Origin: a phage
DNA length: 37,196 nucleotides
Sequence record: PZ445539.1
Direction: 5' to 3' (one strand)
Shown: piece by piece, positions 1,516 through 37,190 of the stretch
Layout of the letters: each line of letters starts with the position of its first letter
Position numbering within the stretch: the stretch's first letter is position 1
Position numbers and translations under genes: made by a program
The notes under the pieces: model-generated
Told to the model about the DNA's origin: nothing
Databases searched by the model: none
The model's input: only the letters and a program-made list of their open reading frames with translations

Positions 1516-2789
1516 TGGAAGAACCTAAATACACGATTGACCTGCGAACCAATAACGGCTGGTGGGCAAGGCTGCAGTCCTGGTTTGTAGGCGGGCGTTT
1601 AGTCACCCCAAATCAGGGCTCACAGACGGGGCCTGTTTCGGCCCACGGACACCTGGGCGATTCATCCATTAATGATGAACGGATACTGCAAATTTCGACG
1701 GTTTGGCGCTGCGTGAGCCTGATTTCAACGCTCACGGCATGCTTACCGCTTGATGTCTTCGAAACCGACCAGAATGACAACCGCAAAAAAGTGGGTTTGA
1801 GCAATCCGCTGGCGCGACTGCTGCGCTACTCACCGAATCAGTACATGACCGCCCAGGAATTCAGGGAGGCCATGACGATGCAGCTCTGTTTCTACGGTAA
1901 CGCGTATGCACTGGTGGACCGCAACAGCGCGGGTGACGTGATCAGCCTTCTCCCGCTTCAGTCTGCCAATATGGATGTGAAACTCGTCGGAAAAAAAGTG
2001 GTTTATCGCTATCAGCGCGACAGCGAATACGCCGACTTTTCGCAGAGAGAGATTTTTCACCTTAAAGGCTTCGGATTCACCGGGCTGGTCGGCCTGTCCC
2101 CCATTGCTTTTGCCTGTAAATCGGCAGGTGTGGCAGTTGCGATGGAGGACCAGCAGCGAGATTTCTTTGCCAATGGCGCCAAGTCTCCGCAAATCCTCTC
2201 AACCGGAGAAAAAGTGCTAACTGAACAGCAGCGCTCGCAGGTCGAAGAGAACTTCAAAGAGATCGCCGGCGGTCCGGTTAAAAAACGCCTCTGGATTCTG
2301 GAAGCGGGCTTTTCCACATCGGCAATTGGCGTAACGCCGCAGGATGCCGAAATGATGGCGTCCCGAAAATTTCAGGTTAGTGAACTGGCGCGATTCTTTG
2401 GCGTACCGCCTCACCTTGTCGGCGATGTCGAGAAGTCAACGAGCTGGGGATCGGGTATCGAGCAGCAGAATCTCGGCTTCCTGCAGTACACGCTGCAGCC
2501 CTATATCTCCCGGTGGGAAAACAGCATTCAGCGGTGGCTTATTCCTGCTAAGGATGTTGGACGTATTCATGCTGAGCACAATCTCGACGGCCTGCTGAGG
2601 GGCGATTCGGCATCCCGCGCAGCCTTTATGAAGGCAATGGGAGAGGCAGGATTACGCACCATCAATGAAATGCGCCGAACGGACAACCTCCCGCCATTGC
2701 CGGGTGGCGATGTGGCAATGCGCCAGTCGCAATACGTGCCGATCACCGACTTAGGAACCAACAAAGAGCCCCGTAATAACGGGGCTTAA
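1512..2789 (+). CDS. portal protein (HK97-family-like)
   Basis: 425-aa ORF directly after TerL with overlapping start (GTG 1512 or ATG 1515); size and position typical of a portal gene. Confidence 0.85.
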   Translation: MMEEPKYTIDLRTNNGWWARLQSWFVGGRLVTPNQGSQTGPVSAHGHLGDSSINDERILQISTVWRCVSLISTLTACLPLDVFETDQNDNRKKVGLSNPLARLLRYSPNQYMTAQEFREAMTMQLCFYGNAYALVDRNSAGDVISLLPLQSANMDVKLVGKKVVYRYQRDSEYADFSQREIFHLKGFGFTGLVGLSPIAFACKSAGVAVAMEDQQRDFFANGAKSPQILSTGEKVLTEQQRSQVEENFKEIAGGPVKKRLWILEAGFSTSAIGVTPQDAEMMASRKFQVSELARFFGVPPHLVGDVEKSTSWGSGIEQQNLGFLQYTLQPYISRWENSIQRWLIPAKDVGRIHAEHNLDGLLRGDSASRAAFMKAMGEAGLRTINEMRRTDNLPPLPGGDVAMRQSQYVPITDLGTNKEPRNNGA

Positions 2790-6132: not shown

Positions 6133-6148
6133 CCTTACCCACCATAAC

Positions 6149-6173
6149 AGACCGCCCCGGCGGTCTTTTTTTA
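6149..6173 (+). terminator. terminator-like hairpin upstream of major tail gene
   Basis: AGACCGC-cccg-GCGGTCT stem-loop followed by TTTTTTT. Confidence 0.55.
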
Positions 6174-6185
6174 TCTGGAGAAACC

Positions 6186-6656: not shown

Positions 6657-6677
6657 GCGGCTTCGGCCGCTTTTTTT
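6656..6677 (+). terminator. terminator-like hairpin after major tail gene
   Basis: AGCGGC-ttcg-GCCGCT (UUCG tetraloop) followed by TTTTTTT. Confidence 0.6.
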
Positions 6678-6710
6678 ATCCCTTCGATCATGTAACAAGA
6701 GAAAAATGAA

Positions 6711-7112: not shown

Positions 7113-7399
7113 AGCAGCCGCTGACCTTTTTCCTGATGTCATTGGCGCTACGGATGGGGCGCACTCTTCACGAACTGCGCCAGACCATGACCGCCAGCGA
7201 GCTCAAAATGTGGATCGAGTTCGACCGCATCAGTCCGATTGGTGACTGGCGCGCCGATGCACAGGCGGCGCAGATCTCCGTTGCAATGCTGAACTCTCAG
7301 GGTGGGAAATTCACCATTCCTGACGTGATGCTGAAGTGGGGAGAGCAGGAAGAGGTCGCAGAAGTCTCAGAACTCGAAAATTGGATATCCAGTCTTTGA
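7100..7399 (+). CDS. tail assembly protein T-like extension, expressed as G-T fusion by programmed -1 frameshift
   Basis: The -1 frame is open from 7100 through ORF 7136..7399 with no stop; heptamer identical to lambda G-T slip site; directly upstream of tape measure gene. Confidence 0.65.
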   Translation, partial: GKAVKQPLTFFLMSLALRMGRTLHELRQTMTASELKMWIEFDRISPIGDWRADAQAAQISVAMLNSQGGKFTIPDVMLKWGEQEEVAEVSELENWISSL

Positions 7400-16900: not shown

Positions 16901-17496
16901 GCCTGCAGACGGACGTCAACGGCAACAAGGCATCCATCAACAGCCTGAATCAGACGTTCTCCGACTATCAGCAGGCTACGGCCACGCAGATAAACGGCAT
17001 TACGGCGACCGTTAACGGGCATACCTCAGCCATCACCACTAACGCTCAGGCGATAGCCAACGTTAATGGCGACCTCAGCGCGATGTACAACATCAAGGTT
17101 GGTGTCTCCAGCAACGGGCAGTATTACGCCGCGGGGATGGGTATCGGCGTGGAGAATACGCCATCCGGCATGCAGTCGCAGGTTATCTTCCTGGCTGACC
17201 GCTTCGCCGTCACCACCGCAGCCGGAAATAGCGTGGCTTTGCCGTTTGTGATCCAGAACGGGCAGACATTCATCCGGGCCAGCTTCATCCAGGACGGCAC
17301 CATTGAGAACGCCAAAATCGGAAACTATATCCAGTCGAATAACTATGTGGCTGGTTCTGCAGGCTGGAAGCTTGATAAGGGAGGGACGTTCGAAATTAAC
17401 GGCGTGGCCGGGGGCGGGAGGATGCTGATATCCAGCACTCTCATTCGCATCTACGACAGCAACAACGTGCTGCGCGTCAGAATGGGGTTATGGTAA
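13960..17496 (+). CDS. central tail fibre / host specificity protein (lambda gpJ-like)
   Basis: 1178-aa ORF at the canonical position after I. Confidence 0.9.
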   Translation: MATDKVLKGRKGGSSSSRTPTEQPDDLQSVAKAKILVALGEGEFAGQLTGKDIYLDGTALENADGSQNFSGVTWEFRAGTQAQKYIQGIPGTENEISVGTEVSSATAWTRTFTNTQLSAVRLRLKWPSLFKQEDDGDLVGYSVNYAIDLQTDGGTWQTVLNTSVTGKTTSGYERSHRIDLPQAGSTWTIRLRKITSDANSAKIGDTMTLQSFTEVIDAKLRYPNTALLYIEFDSSQFNGSIPQISCEPRGRVIRVPDTYDPETRTYSGTWTGAFKWAWTDNPAWIFYDLVVSDRFGLGHRLTAANIDKWTLYQVAQYCDQMVPDGKGGNGTEPRYTCNVYIQDRNDAYTVLRDFAAIFRGMTYWGGDQIVALADMPRDVDYSYTRANVVGGRFTYSSSTTKSRYTTALVSWSDPGNAYADAMEPVFEQALVARYGFNQLEMTAIGCTRQSEANRKGRWGILTNNKDRVVSFDVGLDGNIPQPGYIIAVADELLSGKVMGGRISAVNGRVIKLDRVADAAAGDRLILNLPSGVSQSRTIQAVNGESVTVTTAYSETPQAEAVWVVESDELYAQQYRVISVSEKDDGTFSITGAWHDPDKYARIDTGAIIDQRPVSVIPPGNQSPPANIVISSFSVVQQNISVETMRVSWDQAQNAIAYEAQWRRNDGNWVNVPRSSTTSFDVPGIYAGRYLVRVRAINAAEISSGWGYSEEKTLTGKVGNPPKPVGFIASENVVFGIELNWGFPANTDDTLKTEIQYSLTGTEDDAMLLADVPYPQRKYQQMGLKAGQIFWYRAQLVDRSGNESGYTEWVRGQASIDVSDITDVILEEIKDSDTFKDLIENAVDSNEKIAGMADDIKQANDELELQAQEIAKNAQDIGEVQTSVNELSSTVGDVSSSLSELEQTVATADTALGQRIDSISVSMDGMTGGVKNSAIAIIQNGLAQVATRKSLSASVAGNSAQLDRIDEVIVNEKEATARSLLSLQTDVNGNKASINSLNQTFSDYQQATATQINGITATVNGHTSAITTNAQAIANVNGDLSAMYNIKVGVSSNGQYYAAGMGIGVENTPSGMQSQVIFLADRFAVTTAAGNSVALPFVIQNGQTFIRASFIQDGTIENAKIGNYIQSNNYVAGSAGWKLDKGGTFEINGVAGGGRMLISSTLIRIYDSNNVLRVRMGLW

Positions 17497-17792
17497 TGCC
17501 ACAGGGTTTGCAGTGTTGGGATAGTGCAGGGCGGGTAGCAGTGGATTTAAGCGATTACGCGATTCGTTACATGGGCAGCGCAACGGTTTCGCTTGCTTCA
17601 GGAGAGACGTCAAAAAATGTCGCTTTTTCTGGCGCAACGCAGGACGGGACGTTTGTCACAATCGTTTCAACTGGCGTGACTGTAAACGAGTATTTTTGCC
17701 GCGCTTATAACGGCGGCTTTACTCTCTACTATCTCCCCACGGGTGGAAGTGCCGCAATCACTCTCAATGTTGAGGTTTATAACTTTCAATGA
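17490..17792 (+). CDS. hypothetical protein, tail-distal region
   Basis: 100-aa ORF overlapping the J stop; no recognisable motif. Confidence 0.4.
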   Translation: MVMPQGLQCWDSAGRVAVDLSDYAIRYMGSATVSLASGETSKNVAFSGATQDGTFVTIVSTGVTVNEYFCRAYNGGFTLYYLPTGGSAAITLNVEVYNFQ

Positions 17793-18430
17793 GCGGATTC
17801 GAAGTTTACAACAGCGACGGAAAACTGCTGGTGGATTCACAAAACAGATCGACCCTGTTTTATGATAAGCGCACGCTGGGTGCCGTCACCGATAAAGGCG
17901 CCTACCGTGTTAACAGCCCGTTTGGTGATGGCAGTACGCTCGGCTTTACGCAGCAGTCATTCTGGAATGACGGCCGTTTAAGGTGGCTGCAGCTGGGCAC
18001 AAACAAATACGGTTTTCCTGGTGCTGATATGCTTGAAGATAATGCTGGTAGCATGATCCGAACTGCGCGAAATATTGGCTTGCAGAGTGGTTATCTCGAT
18101 GTGTTTGATAGTGCCGGCAGCCTTATCTGGAGCGCTGCATCAGCCTCTAAGATGCCGAGAGTCGTTGGGTTCTTTGACGTACCAGCTAACTATGACCTGC
18201 AGAACAATACCTTTTCAGTCAGTTTAAGCTTTAACCCCTGGATTCTGGTAAACAACTGCCCTGGAAACCTTAGCGATGATGGTACGGTTGTCGGGTATTC
18301 AGGTGTGGTGCTCAAATGGACTGGCTCTCAGCTGCAGGGCAGATACATTTCAAATAACCAGCGCAGCTGGAGCCAGACGTTTCAGGGGCGGGGCCTACGA
18401 ATCCCCATCGCTCAGTTTGTTGGAATTTGA
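17789..18430 (+). CDS. hypothetical protein, possibly tail-associated
   Basis: 213-aa ORF with start overlapping the previous stop; no signal peptide. Confidence 0.45.
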   Translation: MSGFEVYNSDGKLLVDSQNRSTLFYDKRTLGAVTDKGAYRVNSPFGDGSTLGFTQQSFWNDGRLRWLQLGTNKYGFPGADMLEDNAGSMIRTARNIGLQSGYLDVFDSAGSLIWSAASASKMPRVVGFFDVPANYDLQNNTFSVSLSFNPWILVNNCPGNLSDDGTVVGYSGVVLKWTGSQLQGRYISNNQRSWSQTFQGRGLRIPIAQFVGI

Positions 18431-18757
18431 CACGGGAGGAACGCGTGGATAATGAGTCGCGATCATATCTTGTTTCACGCCCTTTGCTGAATTAAAGCGA
18501 TAAACCACATCCAGCTTATCCGTTTTTTTATAGCAAATATTACTTAACCGTTTATTAATATGGCGGCTGAATATTCCGTTGCTACTGTCTGAAATAATAT
18601 CCACCTCTCTGGTGGCGCAGTCGATATTTACGTGAATATCACCACCCAGCGATAAACGAGCGGCATCAACCGGGTAATCCATCTGGAATGCGTTATCTGT
18701 GTGTGTGTTCGTACATCCAGCCACCAGAAAAAGCGCTGCAGCAAATAAAAGTTTCAT
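18395..18757 (-). CDS. lipoprotein, unknown function (antisense moron)
   Basis: Signal peptide with classic lipobox LVAGC; AT-rich; convergent with the upstream tail gene. Confidence 0.6.
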   Translation of the reverse strand: MKLLFAAALFLVAGCTNTHTDNAFQMDYPVDAARLSLGGDIHVNIDCATREVDIISDSSNGIFSRHINKRLSNICYKKTDKLDVVYRFNSAKGVKQDMIATHYPRVPPVSNSNKLSDGDS

Positions 18758-18883
18758 TTCAACATTCCTGTTTATGCGGGAACTTCCATTTTATTTGAGT
18801 TTAAAAAATAGTCAGATTGATATGAGCGATCAATTTTACACGATTGATCGCTTTTAACGATCGTTATTATCGTGAGGTAGTTC

Positions 18884-20269
18884 ATGCTTTATAACACCGG
18901 CACCATCGCTATTAACGGAAATACCGCAACCGGCACCGGCACAAACTGGACGGCACCCGCCAGCCAGGTTCGCGCTGGCCAGACGATTATTGTCATGTCT
19001 AACCCGGTTCAGATGTTCCAGATTTCATCCGTGAACAGCGCCACGTCAATGACGGTAACGCCTGCTGCATCACCGGCGCTGAGCGGCCAGAAGTATGGAA
19101 TTCTTGTGTCGGACAATATTTCGGTCGACGGACTGGCGCAGGCCATGTCTCAGCTCATCAAAGAGTATGACGAGAATATCGGTGCATGGGAGACGTTCGC
19201 TACTACCTCAGCGAACCAGATTATCACTGTAACCATCAACGGTACCTCCGTGAATATTCCGGGTATTGGTGGCCTGGCTCGAAAAGGGGCAAACAGCGAT
19301 ATCACGGAGCTGAAAGGGCTCACTACTGCGCTTTCTATTGCGCAGGGCGGGACCGGGGCAACGAACGCTGCAGACGCTCGCTCAGGTCTAGGATTTACAA
19401 ATGGCGTAGTACCAGTATCTCTTGGCGGCACCGGCGCAACGAATGCTGCCGACGCTCGCTCAAACCTCGTTTTGGGAAGTAGTGCTACCAGGGACGCATA
19501 TAGCTCTTCTGGCAAAATGTTGTCAGAAGGAGATTTTGGGTTAGGCGGGGCGGCGTCAACCAACGGAAATGAGCAGGCATGCGGATTTTACAGAGCAGTT
19601 GCTGGTGCCAGCGGAAACCCATTAAGTAATTCAGGCGTCATACTCAACCACCAGGTCTACGGCGCTAATGCATTCACAAGAATTGCCACTTCCTATGAGC
19701 TACCTGTTCCCAGGATTTTTGTATCAACAAAGGTGAACTCTACCTATTACCCATACTATGAATTTTACACTACAGGTAACACTACTAAGGCCAGCGATGG
19801 GACACTTAAGGCCGCATCACCGGTCGCTCGCATTGTTACATCACAGGAGGAATGTCAGCGCGCGGATATCGACGAACCTGGCTTTATTTGGTGCGGCTGC
19901 GGAACGGCGAACGCCGAGGCCGAAGGAATAACTCTTTCTCGTCTCGAAGCGGGAGTTTACGTGCTGACCGGTTCTGCAGGGCTGGCATCGGAAGGCTGGA
20001 AGTTGCTGCCGCCAATGGACCCAGGTGGAATGGGAGAACTGGGCGTTGTTGAGGCAGAGCAAAACGACAATGGCGAGCTGACAATCCGCCTGTTCAAGAG
20101 CAAATACATGTTGAGCGATGAAGGTGAGATCATCAAAACCAAAGGTGAACTGATGGATGTCCCGGCAAACAGTTGGATCGATGTTCGCCTGGATATGCCA
20201 GAGAGCAGCATTTGGAATCATCGCCAGAAAGAAGCCATGGAACAAGCGGATAATAATTCTGGTTCTTAA
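18884..20269 (+). CDS. side tail fibre protein with tail-fibre repeats
   Basis: 461-aa ORF; tandem GGTGATNAADARS.LG repeats typical of phage tail fibre repeat motif; GAGG ribosome-binding site. Confidence 0.8.
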   Translation: MLYNTGTIAINGNTATGTGTNWTAPASQVRAGQTIIVMSNPVQMFQISSVNSATSMTVTPAASPALSGQKYGILVSDNISVDGLAQAMSQLIKEYDENIGAWETFATTSANQIITVTINGTSVNIPGIGGLARKGANSDITELKGLTTALSIAQGGTGATNAADARSGLGFTNGVVPVSLGGTGATNAADARSNLVLGSSATRDAYSSSGKMLSEGDFGLGGAASTNGNEQACGFYRAVAGASGNPLSNSGVILNHQVYGANAFTRIATSYELPVPRIFVSTKVNSTYYPYYEFYTTGNTTKASDGTLKAASPVARIVTSQEECQRADIDEPGFIWCGCGTANAEAEGITLSRLEAGVYVLTGSAGLASEGWKLLPPMDPGGMGELGVVEAEQNDNGELTIRLFKSKYMLSDEGEIIKTKGELMDVPANSWIDVRLDMPESSIWNHRQKEAMEQADNNSGS

Positions 20270-20278
20270 TTAAACATA

Positions 20279-20308
20279 GGCAGTCACGTAATTAATGACT
20301 GCCTTTTT
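20279..20308 (+). terminator. intrinsic terminator after tail fibre gene
   Basis: GGCAGTCA-cgtaattaa-TGACTGCC hairpin followed by TTTTT. Confidence 0.6.
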
Positions 20309-20309
20309 G

Positions 20310-20576
20310 TCACGCACCAACCTGGCGAACAGTCGGGAACTCAGAAACCAACCACATATCAGATTCTTCAAACATTTCCTCCAGCATACGGTTCAGTTTT
20401 TCCCGATCGCTTTTGCTGGCATCGCTATTCAGGCCGTTTTCCTGCATCGGCTTCACTTTCACCTCGGCATCAGGGAAAATCTGGTGCACTCGCTTCGTCA
20501 GCTCTGCCAGGATAATTTCTCTGGCGCCTGCCAAACCATCAACATTCCGCTTGTCATAAACCAGTTCAACGAACAT
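20310..20576 (-). CDS. DinI-like protein
   Basis: 88-aa acidic protein whose sequence pattern resembles DinI; GGAGG ribosome-binding site; two LexA boxes immediately upstream. Confidence 0.75.
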   Translation of the reverse strand: MFVELVYDKRNVDGLAGAREIILAELTKRVHQIFPDAEVKVKPMQENGLNSDASKSDREKLNRMLEEMFEESDMWLVSEFPTVRQVGA

Positions 20577-20595
20577 ATAAGCCTCCGGAAAACCA

Positions 20596-20635
20596 CTGTG
20601 TTTGTATACAGTATTTTTACTGTAAAAATAAACAG
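20596..20635. promoter_or_regulatory. two tandem LexA (SOS) boxes in the DinI-like promoter
   Basis: CTGT-N8-ACAG at 20596-20611 (aCTGTgtttgtatACAGta) and 20620-20635 (taCTGTaaaaataaACAGta). Confidence 0.7.
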
Positions 20636-20730
20636 TATCAAGGTGAGCGGAGCGCGAAAAGTGGAAGGGTTTTTGTTACCCTTAGTTACAAATAGAAAAA
20701 CCCCGGACCGTAAGATCTGGGGTTCTTTTA

Positions 20731-20757
20731 AAGTGCACGTGCATTTCACGTGCATAT
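20731..20757. promoter_or_regulatory. candidate integrase arm-type binding sites (left arm of attP)
   Basis: Repeated GTGCA(C/T) motif: AAGTGCACGTGCATTTCACGTGCATAT. Confidence 0.35.
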
Positions 20758-20847
20758 TTTTGTCTTTTCTCGGTCTGCGCACTGTCTGGTCAGTGTCCGT
20801 AAGTGGCTGTTTTTATTGCCGCTGTCCGGTTGCAGTCCTATCAAAAG

Positions 20848-20882
20848 TGGTGGAGCTGGCGGGAGTTGAACCCGTGTCCGAA
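20848..20882 (-). mobile_element. ssrA: attP core: 3'-terminal fragment of ssrA (tmRNA) carried by the phage
   Basis: Reverse complement reads GGACACGGGTTCAACTCCCGCCAGCTCCACCA, matching from memory the T-arm/acceptor 3' end of enterobacterial tmRNA; identity stops abruptly upstream; integrase gene adjacent. Confidence 0.7.
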
Positions 20883-20932
20883 TAATGATTAACCTATTGA
20901 ATATTAATGATTTCTGTTTTTTGAAATGCCTC

Positions 20933-20953
20933 AAGTGCATTTTAAGTGCATAT
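20933..20953. promoter_or_regulatory. candidate integrase arm-type binding sites (right arm of attP)
   Basis: AAGTGCATTTTAAGTGCATAT, same motif as at 20731-20757, on the other side of the core. Confidence 0.35.
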
Positions 20954-21006
20954 CGTGGTCCCTCTAACGTCCTGATTCCGTCCAACATTTTGAAATATTC
21001 ACCACG

Positions 21007-22254
21007 CTACTGAACTGCAGAAATGGCGGTTTTTCCGTCGTATTCAGCCAGATATCTACCGTAATTGCGGAACAGCATTTCCGGCCCTTTATGCCCCATC
21101 TGCCCGGCAAGCCAGAAAAGGTTTACGCCTTGGCTAATGTGTCTGGTGGCGAATGTGTGGCGGGTCTGGTACGGGTTACGGTATCGAACGCCAGCTTTTC
21201 TGAGTGTTGGCACCCATGCTTTTTTTCGTATTGCGTCGGCGTTCGCCCAAGGCTCACCCGTTTTAGGATCGCTGAAAATAAACTCACTTTTCATGAACGT
21301 GAATTGTTTCTGCGCCTGCAGCGCGGCCAGCGCCTCGCTGTTTAATTCTACTTTACGGGTACCGGCTTTTGTTTTGGTACCTTTAAGAACGCCAACCACA
21401 CTCGCCGCCTGAACGTGAGCTGTTTTAGCGATATTGTCGAGGTCGGGCCAGCGTAACGCACACAGCTCAGAGCTGCGTAAACCTGTATTGAATGCGAAAC
21501 GGAACAGGTTTTCCCATTCCTGATATCTGCAGCTCTGGTAAATAGCGCTGATTTCCGCTGGTGTGAACGGATCAACTTCGTAATCGTCAATATTCGGGCT
21601 GCTGTCGATCACGTGGTACCGACTCGCGCTGACAAGGGTTACCGGGTTGATTGTCAGCAGGCCGTCAGTCACCGCTTCATCTATGGCGCTGCGCAGAAAC
21701 GAGAGGTTATTCCTGATCGTTTTCAGCTTTGTTTTTCTGCTGGCGATCCAGTTTTTGAGGACCGCAGGGGTCAGTTCCGACACATGCATTTTGTGCAGCG
21801 CAGATAGCGCAGACAGGCACTTTTCATAACCGCCAATAGTGGAGGGCGAAAGGTTGCGGTTCTGGCAGATTTTCAGATACTCGTCCAGGTAGGACTTAAT
21901 ATTTTTGGTTTTCTTCACTACCCCGAACAGCTCCAGTTTTTTGGAGGTGGGGAAGTATTTCGCATAATCGAATGTGCCGCCGGCGATCTGGTTCTGTATC
22001 TCCCCCAGCAGGCGCTCGGCATACTTCACGCCGCGCGCGTTTGCTTCCATTCTGGAAAGGGGCTCCCGGCAGAGAACCCCTTTGTAGGTGAATGTGATCA
22101 CCAGGGTATCGCCAGTTTTATGCTGGCGAATGGTTACTCCTCTTGGGAGAGATAATGATCCTTGTTCTTTCTTGCCCACTTTGAAACCTCCGTTAAGTCT
22201 ATCCAGCGTTCTTTGACGCCATCGACTTTTAATACATGAACACCCTCTTTCCAT
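21007..22254 (-). CDS. int: tyrosine integrase (start codon uncertain, probably downstream of 22254)
   Basis: C-terminal catalytic region with conserved R..H..R..Y pattern (HTFATRHISQG...RNYGRY); adjacent to attP. Confidence 0.9.
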   Translation of the reverse strand: MERGCSCIKSRWRQRTLDRLNGGFKVGKKEQGSLSLPRGVTIRQHKTGDTLVITFTYKGVLCREPLSRMEANARGVKYAERLLGEIQNQIAGGTFDYAKYFPTSKKLELFGVVKKTKNIKSYLDEYLKICQNRNLSPSTIGGYEKCLSALSALHKMHVSELTPAVLKNWIASRKTKLKTIRNNLSFLRSAIDEAVTDGLLTINPVTLVSASRYHVIDSSPNIDDYEVDPFTPAEISAIYQSCRYQEWENLFRFAFNTGLRSSELCALRWPDLDNIAKTAHVQAASVVGVLKGTKTKAGTRKVELNSEALAALQAQKQFTFMKSEFIFSDPKTGEPWANADAIRKKAWVPTLRKAGVRYRNPYQTRHTFATRHISQGVNLFWLAGQMGHKGPEMLFRNYGRYLAEYDGKTAISAVQ

Positions 22255-22340
22255 AACCCCCTTTGTATCCGTTTGTTAACAGCTTCAACCGTTTCTCCGG
22301 CGTCCCGGCAGTAGGTTGAAAGTGGTACGCAATCAAGACT
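22134..22340 (-). CDS. xis: excisionase-like protein
   Basis: About 69 aa from the internal Met (MSLDCVPL...); basic small protein directly upstream of and overlapping int. Confidence 0.55.
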   Translation of the reverse strand, partial: SLDCVPLSTYCRDAGETVEAVNKRIQRGLWKEGVHVLKVDGVKERWIDLTEVSKWARKNKDHYLSQEE

Positions 22341-22644
22341 CATGACCGACCTCCCGCCCAAATGCCTGGGCATTTTCCAGTTCATTTGCCGCATAGATAA
22401 GTGCGTTGTGGTGCGCTCTAAAACCGCCATCAAGTTCGCTGGCCGCTCTCTTGCGCAGAATGTCGATCGCAGCCTGATCGTCGCTCTGGTAATCGGCGGA
22501 CTTTTCCGCCGAACTGGATGATAGTTCACCCAGCACCATCAACATATTCTCCGGATCGATGGGGATGGTGGTGAGCCCCAGCTGCTTGGCCTCCGTTGCT
22601 AGACGGGTCCAACGCTTAATAACTTCTAAAACAGGCTTATTCAT
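22333..22644 (-). CDS. hypothetical protein
   Basis: 103-aa acidic ORF in the leftward early operon. Confidence 0.45.
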   Translation of the reverse strand: MNKPVLEVIKRWTRLATEAKQLGLTTIPIDPENMLMVLGELSSSSAEKSADYQSDDQAAIDILRKRAASELDGGFRAHHNALIYAANELENAQAFGREVGHES

Positions 22645-22655
22645 GGAGCCCCTCG

Positions 22656-22751
22656 CTACCTCACCAAAAATTTATATTCAATCAGCGCGCCGATAACGGT
22701 GGCCGCCAGCAGCAAGGAAACAATGATGCTGAAAATGAAGAGCTTCATCAT
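22656..22751 (-). CDS. small hydrophobic peptide (31 aa), possible membrane peptide
   Basis: MMKLFIFSIIVSLLLAATVIGALIEYKFLVR; ATGA overlap with upstream gene stop; below the ORF-track length cutoff. Confidence 0.3.
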   Translation of the reverse strand: MMKLFIFSIIVSLLLAATVIGALIEYKFLVR

Positions 22752-23161
22752 TTCATCCCGTCAGGTTTGCAGGACTGCAGAGCCTCAACATCTTTCACGT
22801 AGCGGTCGTGCATCGCGTCCCACTTCTCACACCATTTCTCCATTTCTCGCTTGCGCGCCAGGATGCGACGCAGACGGCGAACACAACGCTGGTGGGCGGC
22901 CAGATACTCAGCCTTTGTCTCCCCGTCTCGCCATACCTCCCTGTCATCGCGATCAATACGCACCTGCGGGTGACGCTGCGGAAAACCTGAACGCTCAAAA
23001 GCCTCGGTGGTCATGAAGAAAGCCAGATAGCGGATCGCCGTATCTCGCGTGAAGCATTTTTTGATACGACCGTGACGTACTGCCACGAACAGTGGGCCAA
23101 CTGGCGTATCGTGTTTCTGTAATGCCAGGTCAATCATGCTTACGGTGCGTTTATCGTTCAT
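22748..23161 (-). CDS. hypothetical protein
   Basis: 137-aa ORF, translationally coupled to neighbours. Confidence 0.5.
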   Translation of the reverse strand: MNDKRTVSMIDLALQKHDTPVGPLFVAVRHGRIKKCFTRDTAIRYLAFFMTTEAFERSGFPQRHPQVRIDRDDREVWRDGETKAEYLAAHQRCVRRLRRILARKREMEKWCEKWDAMHDRYVKDVEALQSCKPDGMK

Positions 23162-23379
23162 TTCCGGTCCTTAACTTTGCTGTATCGTTCGTGACTCATT
23201 ACTTCCCAGTTCTTTCCGCCATCGCGGGAAAGTAGCCGCCAGCGGTGATTAACCTTGAGGCTCAAATTACCGGAGCCGTGCATACGGCAGGGGTGAATGC
23301 GCCTTGCTCTGAACTGGCTTAAAACGTGTGCTGCTTTGAGGTGAACCCACTCAGGAATTCGTATCGCTGTCAGTGCCAC
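23158..23379 (-). CDS. hypothetical protein
   Basis: 73-aa basic ORF. Confidence 0.4.
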   Translation of the reverse strand: MALTAIRIPEWVHLKAAHVLSQFRARRIHPCRMHGSGNLSLKVNHRWRLLSRDGGKNWEVMSHERYSKVKDRK

Positions 23380-23605
23380 CAGCTACCTCCTCAAATCTGA
23401 GCTCCATTTCGCGCGCCATTTCGATAAACGTGGCCAGTGAGCAAATATGCTCGTCGTCGAACAGCTGGCGGTCACATATCACCCTCCCGTTCTCGATGTG
23501 CAGGACTACCCGCCCGGTAAAATCAGGGAGGACATGCAGATCCACGTTCAACACGGGGCTGGGGATCAGCACACCCTGATAGAGCATTGTTTGTTGGTTA
23601 GCCAT
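23351..23605 (-). CDS. hypothetical protein
   Basis: Start placed at internal ATG 23605, which has a GGAG ribosome-binding site and gives an 8-nt overlap with the upstream gene. Confidence 0.45.
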   Translation of the reverse strand: MANQQTMLYQGVLIPSPVLNVDLHVLPDFTGRVVLHIENGRVICDRQLFDDEHICSLATFIEMAREMELRFEEVAGGTDSDTNS

Positions 23606-23963
23606 TGCCGATCTCCGCATTAACTGGTTTCTGCTTTTTGATGAACTCAACCAGCTCAGAAATGAGCTCGTCGATTAATTCCTTCCCGCTATCCGTAAGG
23701 AATTCACCGCTGCCATTAACATCAACAGCGCTGCTGTAAATTCCCTTAATAGCTTTTACACCTTCGACATTCCCGTACTCACTGATCGCAAGCCTTTCGA
23801 ATTTTCGTAATAATGCATCGAGAAGAATCTCTGTTAACTCGACCGTGTTAATACCGCCTTTATCGAACTTAATAACAAGGCAGTTACTGCCAGTTTTACG
23901 CTGGTGGCGTAATAACGCTGCCTTTAAAATTCGGCGGCGATATGTCTCGATTAATTTATCCAT
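23598..23963 (-). CDS. hypothetical protein
   Basis: 121-aa ORF. Confidence 0.5.
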   Translation of the reverse strand: MDKLIETYRRRILKAALLRHQRKTGSNCLVIKFDKGGINTVELTEILLDALLRKFERLAISEYGNVEGVKAIKGIYSSAVDVNGSGEFLTDSGKELIDELISELVEFIKKQKPVNAEIGNG

Positions 23964-24249
23964 TGCGCCGTTCCTCCTCCAAACTCATAACTATTTCCTC
24001 TTCTTTTTCGGTCCATCCATGAATCTCTGCGGCGAGGTCATAAACCAGAGCGCATATCGTTTTTAGTTGGAAGTGGTCCAGCTTTTCGTGATATTCAAAT
24101 AATGTTTGCGATAGACCTGCCAGTTGCTCAGCTTTGATATTCACACCCTGAATATCCTGTCTTTTCAATACGCTCATAATTACCGCCCATATGCTTTTTT
24201 CAGGTAAAGGCGAGCGATTACCTCGTAACCACAAGCCGCATAAAGGCAC
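23956..24249 (-). CDS. hypothetical protein (start uncertain)
   Basis: 97-aa ORF; alternative start at 24177. Confidence 0.4.
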   Translation of the reverse strand: MPLCGLWLRGNRSPLPEKSIWAVIMSVLKRQDIQGVNIKAEQLAGLSQTLFEYHEKLDHFQLKTICALVYDLAAEIHGWTEKEEEIVMSLEEERRNG

Positions 24250-24283
24250 GCTGTTCTGTATGCCGTTTTATCAATGATGAAAG

Positions 24284-24676
24284 TCATACGAAGCGCCTCA
24301 CCGCCAAAGAAGCGACTACCCGACCGTGAATTTTGATATCTTTCAATTCATCAGTGTTGAGGGTGAATGTTTCGTAATGATGGTTGTCAGAAATAATTTT
24401 CAACGAACCACAAATTAATGGCTCTATTCTCTTAATGAACAGGCATGGGCGGCCGAAAACCTCCATCGTATAAACGTAAATGCCAGGAGTGAGCGCACGG
24501 CCACCGCAATCAACGAACGCCACAACCTCACATGGTTCGATGGTCGGTTGCATTGAATCACCTTCCATCCGGCAGCTCTGAACGCGGTTACCAAAGTCGT
24601 TAATATTGTCTGAACCGAACAGCATTCGAGGAGTTTTTATTGGCTGATTAATCGCGATAGCATTTTGCATTTTCAT
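24284..24676 (-). CDS. stand-alone S24-family peptidase-like protein (LexA/UmuD C-terminal domain type)
   Basis: GDSMQPTI serine motif and downstream FIKRI lysine in correct order; 130 aa with no HTH; GAGGAA ribosome-binding site. Confidence 0.6.
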   Translation of the reverse strand: MKMQNAIAINQPIKTPRMLFGSDNINDFGNRVQSCRMEGDSMQPTIEPCEVVAFVDCGGRALTPGIYVYTMEVFGRPCLFIKRIEPLICGSLKIISDNHHYETFTLNTDELKDIKIHGRVVASLAVRRFV

Positions 24677-24736
24677 TTCCTCAGGGTGAGTTTGGCCCCA
24701 CCAAGAAAGGTGTTAATTAAACAATGTTAATTAATT

Positions 24737-25168
24737 TTAAATCTTGTCTGCTTGCTTACAGATGGTTTCTTGCAAGTCATCTAATTTTTCATAAACGATA
24801 GTTAGAGTACCGATAGCCGACAATTCAGGAGGCATACAATCCATAGCGTTGGATAAAGCCATTCTGCAATTGCCAATATCCGCAGACCATGAATTAAGTT
24901 GATTGGAAGTTATAATGCTTGTTGGCTCTGTAAATTCACCACACTGCTCGTTTCCTGAAATGAGCCACAGAACATCAGAATGAAGAATGTTAGCCAATTG
25001 GATTAACTGGTCAGCAAACGGAACAGTTTTCTCCGTTTCCCAGTTGTTAATGGTTTCGGTTGTTAAACCAAGATGATCAGCCAAAAAATCCTGAGACAGT
25101 CGAAGCGAAGATCTTTGATTTAATATTCTTTTGCCGATGGTTTTGGCTACGGTGATTTGAGTATTCAT
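24737..25168 (-). CDS. XRE-family helix-turn-helix transcriptional regulator
   Basis: N-terminal HTH pattern (LRLSQDFLADHLGLTTETINNWE); first gene after the OL-like palindrome; GGAG ribosome-binding site. Confidence 0.7.
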   Translation of the reverse strand: MNTQITVAKTIGKRILNQRSSLRLSQDFLADHLGLTTETINNWETEKTVPFADQLIQLANILHSDVLWLISGNEQCGEFTEPTSIITSNQLNSWSADIGNCRMALSNAMDCMPPELSAIGTLTIVYEKLDDLQETICKQADKI

Positions 25169-25210
25169 TTCATTGGCTCCGTTGTTTGCCGATGAATGAA
25201 CTTTAAGTCA

Positions 25211-25227
25211 TGCAATAACTTATTGCA
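25211..25227. promoter_or_regulatory. OL-like operator: perfect 8-1-8 palindrome
   Basis: TGCAATAAcTTATTGCA; half-site TTATTGCA recurs in the cI-cro intergenic region. Confidence 0.5.
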
Positions 25228-25320
25228 ATAACAAAACTTATTTTTCTTTTACGATTTAGTTTAATGCATTGATTTTTTTGATTAAATTTTGTTATTAAAT
25301 AGCATAGCTTACAGCTATAG

Positions 25321-25350
25321 ACAAAGAAAAAGCCGCTTAAAAGCGGCTTC
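25321..25350 (-). terminator. intrinsic terminator downstream of repressor gene
   Basis: GCCGC-ttaaaa-GCGGC hairpin followed on the minus strand by TTTTTCTTTGT. Confidence 0.6.
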
Positions 25351-25370
25351 AAAAGGTGGGGTGTTGAAGG

Positions 25371-26069
25371 TTAGAGCCTATTGTAATTGATTGATTCATG
25401 CATTATGGCTTTACCCATCACGTAAAGGTCATCTTGGTTTTCTTCCGTGATATACCATTTCTCATATGCCGGATTATCCGATAAGACTGCTAGCCTGTTT
25501 CCCTGCATCTGGAGACGTTTTAGGTGAAATGTTTTACCAAAAACAAACACATACACACCATCCGTTAGAAAGTGTCGGACGGAAATGTCTACGAAGACAC
25601 GATCACCGGAATTAAATGTGCTGGCCATGCTGTCGCCATTGACGGTCATTACTTTTACGACATCTTCACTACGATTCCCGAAAAGGGATTTTGCATGTTG
25701 AGTCGTAAACTCAATAGCGTGTAAAACCTCCACATATTCTGAAAGCATGAACGTGCCAGGCCCTGCACTCACTGCAAGGTCAAGAACCTCGACCCTGAAT
25801 ATGCCAGCGTTATCCTTTACCTCCCTTTCGGGCATGGTCTCTATCACATAGCCCTGTCTATGAGGCACATGATTTTTTCCAGTTGATAGCCATTCAGGGC
25901 TCACACCCAGCGCATTAGCAATCTCAACCAACTTACGTGTTGTGTTGGTTTTGCCTGCAACAAGACGCCAGATAGCTGGTTGCGAAACCCCAACTTTCAT
26001 CGCTAATTCTGCCTGCGTAAGGCCTGCGTCAACCATCGCTTTTTGAAGACGATCTGAGAATGTGTTCAT
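25371..26069 (-). CDS. cI: CI-like repressor (HTH plus S24 autopeptidase domain)
   Basis: Start placed at internal Met (MNTFSDRL...) to clear the operator region; N-terminal HTH; C-terminal S24 domain with GDSM serine and later KRLQ lysine; divergent from cro. Confidence 0.85.
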   Translation of the reverse strand: MNTFSDRLQKAMVDAGLTQAELAMKVGVSQPAIWRLVAGKTNTTRKLVEIANALGVSPEWLSTGKNHVPHRQGYVIETMPEREVKDNAGIFRVEVLDLAVSAGPGTFMLSEYVEVLHAIEFTTQHAKSLFGNRSEDVVKVMTVNGDSMASTFNSGDRVFVDISVRHFLTDGVYVFVFGKTFHLKRLQMQGNRLAVLSDNPAYEKWYITEENQDDLYVMGKAIMHESINYNRL

Positions 26070-26083
26070 ACCAATAAGCCTAT

Positions 26084-26170
26084 ACAAAAAGTTATTAAGT
26101 GGCAAATACGATAAGTTATTGCATAAAGTTATTCAAGGCTATACTCTTTCCCTATGTTCAATAACTTTTG
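26084..26170. promoter_or_regulatory. OR-like operator/promoter region between cI and cro
   Basis: Four copies of core AAGTTATT/AATAACTT (26089, 26113, 26126, inverted at 26160), one forming ..AAGTTATTGCA matching the OL palindrome half-site. Confidence 0.5.
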
Positions 26171-26178
26171 GTATTTTT

Positions 26179-26406
26179 ATGATCAATCAACATGTCAAGA
26201 GAGCTATCGATATTCTCGGCGGCCAAGCTGCATTAGCAAGAGCGTGCGGGGTTACTCAACCGGCTGTATTTCGCTGGCTTAATGGTAGCCGGGTTAAGGC
26301 TGATCATGTCATGTCCATTGTTAAAGCTACTGGTGGCGAAGTTAAAGCCTACCAGATCCGCCCAGACCTTCCAGATACATTCCCGCACCCGGGTAATGGG
26401 GTGTGA
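26179..26406 (+). CDS. cro: Cro-like HTH regulator
   Basis: About 75 aa from the internal ATG; HTH pattern (GGQAALARACGVTQPAVFRWLNG); divergent from cI. Confidence 0.7.
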   Translation: MINQHVKRAIDILGGQAALARACGVTQPAVFRWLNGSRVKADHVMSIVKATGGEVKAYQIRPDLPDTFPHPGNGV

Positions 26407-26407
26407 C

Positions 26408-26617
26408 ATGTCACATCCAATCACTACCGAAAACCAAGTTAAGCCCTTGGATATCGATTATCGCGATCCGCGCGGTGTGATTGTGCATGTCACCGGCTGG
26501 AATCGTGATAAGCAGCAGGTGTACTTCACCAGGCAGAATTACCCGCATGAATGCATGCAGCCTGTTTGGAAGTTCCAACAATATTTTACGAAGGTCTCGG
26601 AGGCGCAAAATGCGTGA
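26408..26617 (+). CDS. hypothetical protein (occupies cII-like position)
   Basis: 69 aa from ATG 26408; no recognisable motif. Confidence 0.35.
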   Translation: MSHPITTENQVKPLDIDYRDPRGVIVHVTGWNRDKQQVYFTRQNYPHECMQPVWKFQQYFTKVSEAQNA

Positions 26618-27632
26618 TTACGGAAAGGTGTCTCCTCACTTCTGGATTGGCAGAACAGGAAAAGAGCTGCGTCAGGCCGGGCCAGAGTCTCAGCTTGTGG
26701 CTTTGTACCTGCTTACCAATCCGCACGCCAATATGATCGGTCTTTATTACATGCCCCTTGCGTTCTTGTCTCATGAGACTGGATTAACCATTGAAGGGGC
26801 TAAGAAGGGGCTTAATAGCGCCATTAAAGCCGGGTTTTGCAAGTACGACGAGCATTCCGAGATGGTGTGGGTCATAGAAATGGCAACGCATCAAATCGGC
26901 GACGCCCTGAAACCAGGAGACAAGCGCTGCGTTGGAGTGCAGAACGAATACAACAAAGTATCAGATAACCTCTTTCTTTCAGAGTTTTACGAGAAATATT
27001 CGAAGCAGTTCAATATGACATTTCCCCGTAGCAGTGAACTCCAGATCCCGGATGTAAATGAAGGGGCTTCGAAGGGGCATCCAAGCCAAGAGCAGGAACA
27101 GGAGCAGGAGAAAGAACAAGATAAAAATACTTTGTCCGATTCGAATCGGACCGATGGCGATAAATATGACGAGTCGAAAGGTAAACCTGCACAGGAAAAA
27201 CCAGATTCAGAATCTGATGATGCTGAAGAACCAGATCCAGTCGATGCCGCTTTCGAAAATATTTTTTGGGGCGCAGGCCTGAGGAAGGATGCCAAGGTCA
27301 AGGCCAAGTCAGCGTTCAGAACCAAATATCGCGACTGGAAAAAAGCGAACCGCGGTACGCCTGATAACTTCGCCGTTATGCTGGCAGAAGATATTAGCCT
27401 CCGTGTGAAAGCTCAGCAAATGGGGATCGACAAACTACTGCCAGCGTCATACCTGAACGGTGAGCGTTGGAACGATGAAAAACCACAGGGCGGCCCTCAG
27501 ATTTCCGCATGCACAAACGTTGCTGGTGGTGCAGGAGCTTCCTGGTACGCCAAACCCAATGACGGTTCGGCTGAGGTGTTTATCAGCCAGGCAGCCATTG
27601 ACCGTATGAAGCGCGGAGCTAACCGCCCATGA
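26610..27632 (+). CDS. putative replication initiation protein / replisome organiser
   Basis: 340 aa from ATG 26610 with GGAGG ribosome-binding site; acidic EQ-rich linker (SQEQEQEQEKEQDK); occupies lambda O position; iteron-like repeats inside the gene. Confidence 0.55.
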   Translation: MRDYGKVSPHFWIGRTGKELRQAGPESQLVALYLLTNPHANMIGLYYMPLAFLSHETGLTIEGAKKGLNSAIKAGFCKYDEHSEMVWVIEMATHQIGDALKPGDKRCVGVQNEYNKVSDNLFLSEFYEKYSKQFNMTFPRSSELQIPDVNEGASKGHPSQEQEQEQEKEQDKNTLSDSNRTDGDKYDESKGKPAQEKPDSESDDAEEPDPVDAAFENIFWGAGLRKDAKVKAKSAFRTKYRDWKKANRGTPDNFAVMLAEDISLRVKAQQMGIDKLLPASYLNGERWNDEKPQGGPQISACTNVAGGAGASWYAKPNDGSAEVFISQAAIDRMKRGANRP

Positions 27633-27735
27633 AAACCATCCTCAAACGTCTATTGGTTGCTGGCTATAACCGCGGATTACTGCGTGAGGAGTTCGTGACT
27701 ATGTGCTTTATCAAATTCGATTTACGGAGTGTGTG

Positions 27736-29607
27736 ATGACCCCTGCTGAGTTATCTGAAAAATTGTGGGACAACGCCGAAAGAGTTGCGAAATACTTGCT
27801 TCCACGAGGACACCTTGAGGGCAAGGAGTGGTGCGCAGGTAATACCAATGGTGATGCTGGTAAGAGCCTGAAAATCAATCTCGGGGGTAAGAAGACTTGG
27901 GCGGATTTTGCAAGCGGCGACAGCGGAGACCTGCTGGATCTTTGGGTGTTGGTGCGTAACTGCCAACTGCACGACGCTATGCGAGAAGCGAAAGAGTTCC
28001 TTGGGCTGAAGGACGACGATAACCACTTTGAGGCAAAGAAAAAGACCTTCTCTCGCCCAACCAAAAAAGGCGTTAAAAAGGCGAGTCATTGCTACGACTA
28101 CCTGGCTTCCCGTGGCATCACCCGTGAGACAGCCGATCAATTCCGTGTTTCGGATGCAGTTGTCTGGTACCACGATGAAAACCGCGAAATTCCGGCAGTA
28201 GCGTTTCCGTATCTTCGCAACGGTGAGCTGTTGCAGGTAAAGCGAATCGGCACTGAACGACCAAATGGCAAAAAGTTGATCATGGCTGAGGCGGATTGCG
28301 AACCATGTCTGTTTGGCTGGCAGGCTATGGACGCGAAAGCCCGAGCTGTTGTGCTTTGCGAAGGAGAGATTGACTGTATGACCTACTCGCAATTCGGTAT
28401 CAGTGCTCTATCGGTACCGTTCGGCGGTGGAAAAGGGGCCAAACAGCAATGGATCGAATACGAGTATCACAACCTCGACCGATTCGAAGAAATTTGGTTA
28501 AGCCTCGATAACGATGATGTTGGGCGCGAAGCTGCAAAAGAAATTGCTCGTCGCCTGGGGGAGCATCGTTGCCGCCTGGTAGAGCTGCCGCACAAAGATA
28601 TCAATGAGTGCCTGACCTCCGGGATGAGCGAGGATGAAATCTGGAACTACTTGGGGACCGCTAAATTCTTCGACCCTGATGAACTCTGCTCTGCGGGTGA
28701 TCTCCTTCAGGAAACACTGGATGCATTCGAGCATCGGGATGTTGGGTTATTTTCCAGCCCGTGGGATTCGCTGAACAGTAATTTTAAATTCCGCGCTGGT
28801 GAGCTGACGCTGGTTAACGGAGTGAACGGTCACGGTAAAACGGAGCTGGTGGGGCATATCGCCGTCAATGCCATGAGCCAGGGAGTTCGCGTATGCATTG
28901 CATCGTTGGAACTTAAGCCTGGGAAAATGTTGGCTCGTCTTACCCGGCAAACCATTTGTAGAAAAAACCCAGAACGAACTGAAATTATCATGACTAACGA
29001 GTGGTTTTCTGATCGTCTTTGGGTGTTCAAGCTCACCGGAACAGCCAAGGCCGGTCGTCTGCTGGAAATATTTGCCTATGCCAGACGCCGTTATGGAATC
29101 GATCTTTTCGTTATCGACAACCTGGCAAAATGTGGACTTGATGAAGAGGACTACGGTGGTCAGAAAGAATTTATCGACACCCTCTGCGACTTCAAAAACG
29201 AGCACAACTGCCATGTTCTGCTGGTAACGCATGCCAGAAAAACAAACGAAGCCGCACCAACAGGGAAAATGGATGTTAAAGGCACTGGCGCTTTAACCGA
29301 CATGCCCGACAACGTTATGGCCGTCTGGCGTAACATCCCGCGCGAACTGGCGCAGCGCAAAGCTGAAAGAATGGGGTATGAGAGCCTTGATAAGGACGAG
29401 CAGACTGCTATCCAAATGCCCGCATCAATGATTCGCCTGTTGAAACAACGTGAAGGGGAAGGCTGGATCGGAGACATAGGAGCCAATTTTGATTCGCGCT
29501 CGCACCAGTTTATCGAAGGTGATAAAGGCCCCTTCAATTACTTGGCCGGCAAACAGCAAAGTGAACTCGATATTGAGTGGGAAGCCACCAACGCAACGAG
29601 GTATTAA
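27736..29607 (+). CDS. bifunctional DNA primase / replicative helicase (Toprim plus P-loop NTPase)
   Basis: Toprim-like motif (LCEGEIDCMTY) followed by Walker A (GVNGHGKT) and DnaB-type RecA-like C-terminus; GGAG before ATG 27736 (an upstream GTG at 27703 is also possible). Confidence 0.8.
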   Translation: MTPAELSEKLWDNAERVAKYLLPRGHLEGKEWCAGNTNGDAGKSLKINLGGKKTWADFASGDSGDLLDLWVLVRNCQLHDAMREAKEFLGLKDDDNHFEAKKKTFSRPTKKGVKKASHCYDYLASRGITRETADQFRVSDAVVWYHDENREIPAVAFPYLRNGELLQVKRIGTERPNGKKLIMAEADCEPCLFGWQAMDAKARAVVLCEGEIDCMTYSQFGISALSVPFGGGKGAKQQWIEYEYHNLDRFEEIWLSLDNDDVGREAAKEIARRLGEHRCRLVELPHKDINECLTSGMSEDEIWNYLGTAKFFDPDELCSAGDLLQETLDAFEHRDVGLFSSPWDSLNSNFKFRAGELTLVNGVNGHGKTELVGHIAVNAMSQGVRVCIASLELKPGKMLARLTRQTICRKNPERTEIIMTNEWFSDRLWVFKLTGTAKAGRLLEIFAYARRRYGIDLFVIDNLAKCGLDEEDYGGQKEFIDTLCDFKNEHNCHVLLVTHARKTNEAAPTGKMDVKGTGALTDMPDNVMAVWRNIPRELAQRKAERMGYESLDKDEQTAIQMPASMIRLLKQREGEGWIGDIGANFDSRSHQFIEGDKGPFNYLAGKQQSELDIEWEATNATRY

Positions 29608-36704: not shown

Positions 36705-37190
36705 ATGGCAGATAAACGAACCCGTTCCGACAGTTCGGCGGCAGCGGTTCAGGCCATGAAAAATGCAGCAGTGGACACCATCGATCCTCCGTCCCATGCA
36801 GGTTTGGAAAAAAAAGCCGAACCATTCTGGCATGACAATATCAGATCGAAAGCTCTGGACAGCTGGACGCCAGCCGACCTTCTGGCCGCCGTAGAACTGG
36901 CAAATAATCAGCTCTATATCACCGTTTTACGCAGAGATTTGCGTAAAGAAGAACGTGCACGCGGTGAAGCGAGAAATGAGGCGCTGATTAAAAACCTCCG
37001 CAAACAAATTCCTGATTTGCAGAGAACTATCCTGGCTCAGCGCCGCGACCTACAGATCCATTCCCACGCAACCAACGGCGAAAGCCGCGACCAGAAGAAA
37101 CGCAACCAGAATGATCGTGATGCACGAAATACCAAAACCGAGCATCAGGACCAGGACGACAACCTGATCGCCTTTCCCAAGCACGGATAA
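36705..37190 (+). CDS. terminase small subunit
   Basis: 161-aa ORF with basic coiled C-terminal half; preceded by HNH gene; TerL lies at the other window edge. Confidence 0.75.
   Translation: MADKRTRSDSSAAAVQAMKNAAVDTIDPPSHAGLEKKAEPFWHDNIRSKALDSWTPADLLAAVELANNQLYITVLRRDLRKEERARGEARNEALIKNLRKQIPDLQRTILAQRRDLQIHSHATNGESRDQKKRNQNDRDARNTKTEHQDQDDNLIAFPKHG

Follow-up and report, generated by a model that had tools for sequence, protein, structure and literature searches.

The window, meaning the whole stretch of phage DNA analysed (37,196 nucleotides, PZ445539.1), carries a 31-codon reading frame on its minus strand, within a series of leftward genes (Table 1). The minus-strand reading of the frame was GGGATGAAATGATGAAG, running from 22751 to 22656 as ATG ATG AAG ... 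AGG TAG. The initial annotation had described a hydrophobic 31-codon peptide at this place, and every sequence detail of that description was correct, including the ATGA overlap with the upstream stop: the first ATG (22751-22749) overlapped the TGA (22750-22748) of a 137-aa gene. A second in-frame ATG (22748-22746) had its A in common with the same TGA, giving the junction ATGATGA, and because two in-frame ATGs are present the microprotein could be 31 or 30 aa long. The Shine-Dalgarno-like sequence before the start is weak in the window, and distant members of the family carried a strong GGGAGG 8 nt 5' of the ATG. After the TAG stop, the spacer read CGAGGGGCTCC and was followed by the ATG of a 103-aa gene.

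Table 1. Positions of the microprotein gene, its internal features and surrounding genes in the window
Feature	Position	Strand	Basis or remark
31-codon gene with TAG stop	22656..22751	-	Encodes MMKLFIFSIIVSLLLAATVIGALIEYKFLVR; CDS0028 / XNS37525.1 of phage LMessi
ATGATG start region, translational-coupling junction	22746..22751	-	Sequence; the 4-nt overlap is common in the family
Weak Shine-Dalgarno-like GGGA	22756..22759	-	4 nt before the first ATG, 7 nt before the second
Predicted transmembrane helix LFIFSIIVSLLLAATVIGALI, codons 4-24	22680..22742	-	Hydropathy and AlphaFold2
Near-invariant motif G-A-L-I-E-Y-K-F, codons 21-28, C-terminal end of the helix	22668..22691	-	47 nucleotide versions
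Shine-Dalgarno GAGGGG of the downstream 103-aa gene	22649..22654	-	Inside the 11-nt spacer from the peptide's TAG to the next ATG
Downstream 103-aa gene, phrog_36586 (function unknown)	22333..22644	-	Commonest downstream neighbour, 40/50 copies
Upstream 137-aa gene, phrog_1886 (function unknown)	22748..23161	-	PHROG match, E 2.9e-67; stop overlapped by the microprotein start
73-aa gene, two genes upstream of the microprotein	23158..23379	-	ParE-like toxin domain in Pfam (PF24732, E 2.3e-20); LMessi record gives only "hypothetical"
Gene before the ParE-like gene, phrog_340	23351..23605		Could be an antitoxin
130-aa protein, "CI-like repressor" in the LMessi record	24284..24676	-	May be a stand-alone S24 domain protein beside an HTH protein
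143-aa protein, "CII-like regulator" in the LMessi record	24737..25168	-	Adjacent to the 130-aa protein
Head of the leftward operon	25170..25350	-	Terminator 25350-25329; operator-like ATAAGTTATTGCAT and AATAAC repeats 25210-25243
cI-like S24 repressor gene	25371..26069		Followed by the terminator
cI/cro divergent region	26074..26176		Repeats built on AAGTTATT / AATAACTT, several times
69-aa excisionase ORF	22134..22343	-	phrog_2917, E 2.1e-40; not annotated in PP925823.1
Integrase as called (415 aa)	21007..22254	-	Start probably called too far upstream
tmRNA fragment, just past int	20848..21049	-	Rfam RF00023, 27.4 bits (gathering score 47), E 2.6e-8; probably the attP core
Second hydrophobic 31-codon ORF, MLGFGISCITIILVAFLLVAAFAVGCVGMDL	37050..37145	-	Antisense inside a 161-aa gene (36705..37190, +)

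The window was identical to Escherichia phage LMessi (PP925823.1) over 12,901 bases: positions 16300-29200 corresponded to the reverse complement of PP925823.1 4537-17437, with 100% identity over 22300-23200. The relatives of LMessi included a member of the Hendrixvirinae, the HK97 subfamily. The initial annotation had called the ORF unannotated, which did not hold for GenBank, where the LMessi record lists it as "hypothetical protein", and did hold for RefSeq/PGAP prophages. The homologue was left uncalled in all five E. coli chromosomes inspected (MS 115-1, UMNK88, A41, 25-07338 and KC-Dl-1), and the other E. coli matches carried no feature over the homologous ORF. The copy in phage phi467 was also annotated (CUW01254.1). 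A literature search on the phage names and on the peptide motif returned nothing relevant.

The leftward early operon proposed in the initial annotation is a reasonable reading, with twelve overlapping or closely spaced same-strand genes from 25168 down through xis to int at 21007. The cI-like S24 repressor gene was followed by a strong intrinsic terminator (9-bp stem and T run), and ATAAGTTATTGCAT at the operon head was a 14/14 inverted match to positions 26111-26124 in the cI/cro divergent region. The repeats in that region and after the cI terminator suggest OR- and OL-type operator sets. From this arrangement we infer a pL-like promoter under repressor control at the operon head, and early expression of the microprotein under the same control. 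A simple consensus-match promoter scan did not call the pL-like promoter, and it found no promoter-like site on either strand within about 1 kb of the microprotein ORF.

Several further observations were made in and next to this operon. The homologue of the excisionase ORF is annotated in RefSeq relatives as WP_000050710.1; the integrase call overlaps this ORF by 121 nt, and its start was therefore probably placed too far upstream. The tmRNA fragment past int, which scored below the Rfam gathering score, probably represents the attP core used to integrate into ssrA, and related prophages adjoin intA or ypjA at the CP4-57 site. The LMessi record names a CI-like repressor and an adjacent CII-like regulator besides the full-length cI; in a related prophage the counterpart of the former is named an S24 family peptidase by RefSeq.

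The encoded peptide and its conservation

The microprotein is a hydrophobic single-helix peptide. The best 19-residue Kyte-Doolittle mean was 2.72 for the LMessi peptide and 2.19-2.94 for the intact versions of the family, copy L108 being unscored, and a helix of transmembrane-grade hydrophobicity was present in every copy except L108. AlphaFold2 returned a single continuous helix over residues 2-30 (pLDDT 93.9), uniformly apolar rather than amphipathic, in which small residues recurred at S8, S/G12, A17 and G21, as in helix-packing motifs. The N-terminus always contained Lys, and the tail had a net charge of 0 to +1 before the C-terminal carboxylate was counted. By the positive-inside rule this charge bias, which is small, weakly favours an N-in/C-out orientation, in which E-Y-K-F would sit at the periplasmic interface.

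Judged within the window, the ORF alone was no better than chance. There were 118 ATG ORFs of 25-45 codons in the window, and 81 ORFs of at least 20 aa were counted in 4.5 kb. Only two of the 118 reached a 19-residue Kyte-Doolittle mean of at least 2.4, the microprotein ORF and the minus-strand ORF near the end of the window. The latter is a chance shadow ORF and served as a negative control. It was comparative conservation that raised the microprotein ORF above chance.

Conservation in relatives, which the initial annotation had proposed as a check, was clear. Among all loci fetched there were 116 copies with 47 distinct 81-nt versions, from Enterobacteriaceae prophages and two isolated phages. 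The IMG/VR scan with the peptide alignment gave 40 loci, and a search of one genome per species gave four carriers: an Enterobacter MAG, Pseudocitrobacter faecalis, Enterobacter intestinihominis and Citrobacter sp. Intact copies in E. coli prophages included MMKPFTFSIIVSLLLAATVIGALIEYKFLVR, MKSFLLSMLFGLLLASVVFGALIEYKFLMNY and MKYFLLSVLFGLLLVAVVFGALIEYKFLIGS, and a DNA search with a distant copy recovered a 31-aa copy, MKSFLLSMLFSLLLASVVFGTLIEYKFLMNY, from the Stx2f phage phi467. By exact-sequence look-up, each of the variants occurred on hundreds of contigs, from Enterobacter, Citrobacter, Klebsiella aerogenes and E. coli, and went by "hypothetical" or "uncharacterised" where it was named at all. 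The carriers thus spanned Escherichia, Enterobacter, Citrobacter, Klebsiella aerogenes and Pseudocitrobacter. A tblastn search of the peptide against the phage collection found LMessi only, the short, low-complexity query probably having been filtered, and a plasmid search found no copy. In phmmer against 1.84 billion representatives, two family members and one spurious 3604-aa repeat protein were recovered, and no fusion to a larger protein.

Copies were 28-34 codons long throughout, and in nearly all of them the start fell on the stop of the preceding gene. In every version both remaining sense frames were closed, by 1-4 stops each. The N-terminal two-thirds diverged by 40-50% in amino acids yet stayed hydrophobic, and the median pairwise dN/dS was 0.32 at dS of about 0.6, only moderately below the 0.47 of the out-of-frame control. 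One IMG/VR copy, L108 (IMGVR_UViG_2751185945_000008, at about 2405..2491), read MKIQHQDYGAVAAVVFGALIEYKFLIGF; its hydrophobic N-terminal half was replaced and its motif kept, and it is probably decayed or recombined.

The C-terminal motif G-A-L-I-E-Y-K-F was the most constant part of the peptide. In the 47 versions L, I, E, K and F were present in all, G and Y in 46 each, and A in 44. Synonymous codons were in use across it (GAA 14 and GAG 33, TAT 35 and TAC 11, four Leu codons and four Gly codons), and variation touched the third position in six of the eight codons, the first in one and the second in one. The 3-8 residues between motif and stop varied freely, for example LVR, LMGF, LMNY, LIGS, MTNFGG and W. 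The invariance of the motif is partly circular, because the search patterns used for IMG/VR and for the species representatives, as well as the regular expression behind the 47-version count, contained the motif; loci were therefore also anchored on the neighbouring 103-aa gene instead of on the peptide. In this search, which was not seeded on the peptide, the microprotein was found within 2.5 kb in 66 of 74 loci, with the motif as GALIEYKF in 61, GSLIEYKF in four and GALIESKF in one. The remaining eight loci had no small hydrophobic ORF.

Neighbouring genes and gene order

The junctions of the microprotein gene were kept while its neighbours changed. Where an upstream ORF was called, the start overlapped its stop by 4 nt in 44 of 50 copies, behind five unrelated upstream families, and the ATGA overlap was also found at 10 of 10 further loci. 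Between the stop and the next start lay 2-11 nt in 49 of 50 copies. The upstream genes fell into at least five unrelated families (phrog_1886, the 74-aa, 193-aa and 156-aa families, and a ParE-like toxin-domain protein) and the downstream genes into at least eight (phrog_36586; 123-aa, 77-aa, 81-aa, 140-aa and 70-aa proteins; at one locus a 33-aa ORF; or xis directly). With unrelated families on both sides, the gene travels as an independent mosaic module with gene-boundary junctions.

The close relatives CharmingMan and AsXd-1 had the 137-aa gene and lacked the microprotein; from this absence, and from that at the eight anchored loci, it follows that the neighbouring genes do not need the microprotein gene. 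The gene order thus marks it as accessory rather than essential and as no obligate partner of either neighbour. That it must be paired with the 103-aa gene was considered and discarded, given that other genes intervene or replace it and that eight loci have a 103-aa relative without the peptide; six of these eight match only the C-terminal half of the 103-aa gene. Relatives of the 103-aa protein were all "hypothetical" and without Pfam domains, and its AlphaFold2 model showed only four helices (pLDDT 62.6), too weak for a fold search.

Two variants of the gene order were also noted. The microprotein gene directly followed a ParE-like gene, with an ATGA overlap, in many relatives, among them L044, L092, L108, L114, L117-L119 and L123. 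In the IMG/VR prophages L076, L092, L104, L106 and L111, a gene for a 140-144-aa protein with a Cys-rich, zinc-ribbon-like C-terminus (CACG...CCDYC) lay between the microprotein and 103-aa genes (about 2055..2489 each).

Known small proteins and alternative readings

Searches of the peptide against Pfam-A, NCBIfam, PADLOC and PHROG matched no family. With seven diverse members, Pfam at E up to 10 gave only sub-threshold generic single-helix noise such as PsbX and DUF3042, and eight members compared with Pfam-A, NCBIfam and PADLOC matched no described toxin family, even at E up to 10. The family is a small single-pass membrane protein of an ordinary kind among phage accessory genes, described in none of the libraries searched (Pfam, PHROG, NCBIfam, PADLOC) and skipped by RefSeq pipelines.

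The initial annotation had suggested a likeness to host-killing and division-inhibiting factors. The peptide might kill the host or arrest its growth, by depolarising or permeabilising the inner membrane or by blocking division, like the small hydrophobic toxins. In favour of this, the peptide is highly hydrophobic, has about 30 aa and comes from an operon which the lysogen probably keeps silent; a ParE-like toxin-domain gene lies in the same operon, and many peptides of similar size (TisB, Hok, Ibs, Ldr, ShoB) are toxic when over-produced. TimP is another such peptide (PMC7667032). In size and hydrophobicity the microprotein (31 aa, with the mean of 2.72 and the single-helix model given above) resembles TimP and the type I toxins (Hok/Gef, TisB, Ibs, Ldr, ShoB, Zor), hydrophobic peptides of fewer than 60 aa with one helix, some of which are prophage-borne. 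The type I toxins, however, are stand-alone, with their own promoter, a structured leader and an RNA antitoxin, whereas the microprotein is translationally coupled in an operon. No own promoter, antisense promoter or structured leader was found (promoter scan over about 1 kb, fold z-score -0.27, no Rfam match); the same fold score and Rfam result led us to reject a structured RNA or cis element at this place. The suggested likeness had no sequence support in Pfam-A, NCBIfam, PADLOC or PHROG, in which neither a toxin family nor Kil or DicB was matched. The uniformly apolar, non-amphipathic helix also speaks against a toxin, and generic membrane damage would need no strictly conserved eight-residue motif. 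We consider a host-killing or growth-arresting role unlikely.

Lambda Kil, Rac KilR and Qin DicB likewise come from small genes, dispensable to their temperate coliphages, in the leftward operon that the repressor controls, and the microprotein gene has the same kind of location, with repressor control inferred. They are soluble proteins acting on FtsZ, ZipA or MinC and not membrane peptides, whereas the microprotein is a predicted transmembrane helix. Pfam holds models of the Kil, KilR and DicB families, and neither Pfam nor PHROG matched the peptide to any of them.

The exo-xis ORFs of lambda and Stx phages (orf60a, orf61, orf63, orf73, ea22, ea8.5) influence lysogenisation and induction (PMC3824215, PMC6213356). 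As conserved, dispensable small genes just upstream of xis and int, they match the microprotein gene in genomic position and mosaic behaviour, without homology to it. To our knowledge, none of them is a membrane peptide. The superinfection-exclusion proteins T4 Imm, HK97 gp15 and P22 SieA are also small phage proteins acting at the inner membrane, and they are larger than the microprotein. In temperate phages, superinfection-exclusion proteins are moron products, made in the prophage state from promoters of their own. For the microprotein gene, the lack of a nearby promoter-like site and the operator-like repeats at the operon head argue against such expression, as far as a simple consensus-match scan can show.

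A second alternative is that only translation of the ORF matters, either as a relay that hands ribosomes over or as a leader in which the motif stalls them to tune the downstream gene, the released peptide having no function. The ATGA overlap at the start, the short distance from the stop to the next start with the downstream Shine-Dalgarno sequence inside the spacer, and the position of the conserved motif close to the C-terminus would all suit such an ORF. At loci where the ORF is absent, however, the neighbours are coupled directly by ATGA overlaps of their own, and no relay is therefore needed; a leader ORF would have no common regulated target, because the downstream genes fall into at least eight unrelated families. 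Arrest and leader peptides have one regulated downstream gene and critical residues at or beside the stalling codon, neither of which was found. The residues between motif and stop vary freely in identity and number, which is unusual for termination-stalling peptides, and the hydrophobic helix was maintained through the amino-acid divergence of 40-50%. A purely translational role is thus very unlikely.

It is scarcely credible that the frame arose by chance, or merely shadows another frame, in a short spacer between genes, or that the real gene lies on the opposite strand: short ORFs of this kind are abundant, the other hydrophobic 31-codon ORF of the window is clearly a shadow, and in every version one antisense frame stays open through the 81-nt core, but the microprotein frame, its start on the upstream stop and its length were kept in all 47 nucleotide versions, with conservation at the amino-acid level and synonymous change. 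Third-position variation by itself does not pick the strand, since the antisense frame has the same wobble position as the sense frame and stays open throughout the core. Three features decide for the sense strand: the conservation of its start, stop and length, its place as the coding strand in an operon that runs one way only, and the absence of conserved limits to the antisense open stretch (46-170 codons). An antisense gene would run through unrelated neighbours at different loci, against the direction of the operon, and was rejected. The ORF is very probably a real gene for a membrane microprotein.

Two further candidates were set aside. Conservation of the stop position and the C-terminal motif in the 47 versions led us to reject a leftover signal peptide from a truncated gene. 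E. coli K-12 YpdK (23 aa) is a membrane protein with a single helix and starts with (M)KYFF like some family members; its similarity to the LMessi peptide was not significant (shuffle P about 0.31), it has no EYKF motif, and its sole good score came with one hand-picked variant at a variable position.

Proposed mode of action

The best functional analogy is with MgrB, AcrZ, MgtS, KdpF and CydX, bacterial small inner-membrane regulator proteins which, like the microprotein, have fewer than 50 residues, one transmembrane helix and no enzymatic domain. By sequence analysis the microprotein belongs with this class in its length, its single predicted helix, and its start, stop and length conserved as those of an independent gene. 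In the microprotein as in these regulators, the conserved residues cluster in one short segment through which a partner could be contacted. The microprotein has no sequence similarity to them and differs in being phage-borne and inside an early operon. A review describes binding to larger membrane proteins as a common way for small membrane proteins of bacteria to act (PMC12648545). The near-invariant, sequence-specific motif argues for a specific interaction over generic membrane damage, and suggests that the microprotein may bind and modulate a larger membrane protein.

We propose that a microprotein of about 30 residues with one membrane-spanning helix is made on the leftward early transcript together with xis and int. 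Ribosomes ending the upstream gene would restart on the overlapping ATG(ATG)A, and those ending the microprotein would be passed on to the next gene, 11 nt downstream. The product would insert in the host inner membrane, likely with its N-terminus in the cytoplasm and a short C-terminal tail at the periplasmic face, and the G-A-L-I-E-Y-K-F stretch at the outer end of the helix would probably make a sequence-specific contact. During lytic growth or induction, the microprotein would thereby change the activity of a larger protein in the inner membrane, encoded by the host or possibly by the phage, and it would be dispensable accessory cargo rather than a core function. Taken as a whole, the account of a translationally coupled, N-in/C-out inner-membrane microprotein of a repressor-controlled early operon, acting by specific contact, is the one towards which we lean slightly; for the specific-contact mechanism taken by itself we see the case as evenly poised.

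A more far-reaching form of this proposal is speculative, and we think it improbable. The E-Y-K-F end would dock on a specific inner-membrane machine of the host, either a DNA-entry channel or PTS component or FtsH/HflKC, which sets CII levels; the microprotein would thereby exclude superinfecting phages or bias the choice between lysis and lysogeny in the first minutes of infection or induction, and would be the founding member of a previously undescribed family of early phage microproteins.

Small membrane proteins are routinely missed, and the NCBI pipeline skips the microprotein gene in every RefSeq E. coli prophage inspected. The family is compact and easily synthesised, its eight-residue motif is sharply defined and its carrier phage LMessi is culturable, which makes it a convenient test case for phage microproteins at the host membrane. 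If the microprotein only modestly tunes infection, it would be one more accessory gene; if it does block DNA entry or a membrane protease, it would be a new and very small tool among phage-host interactions.
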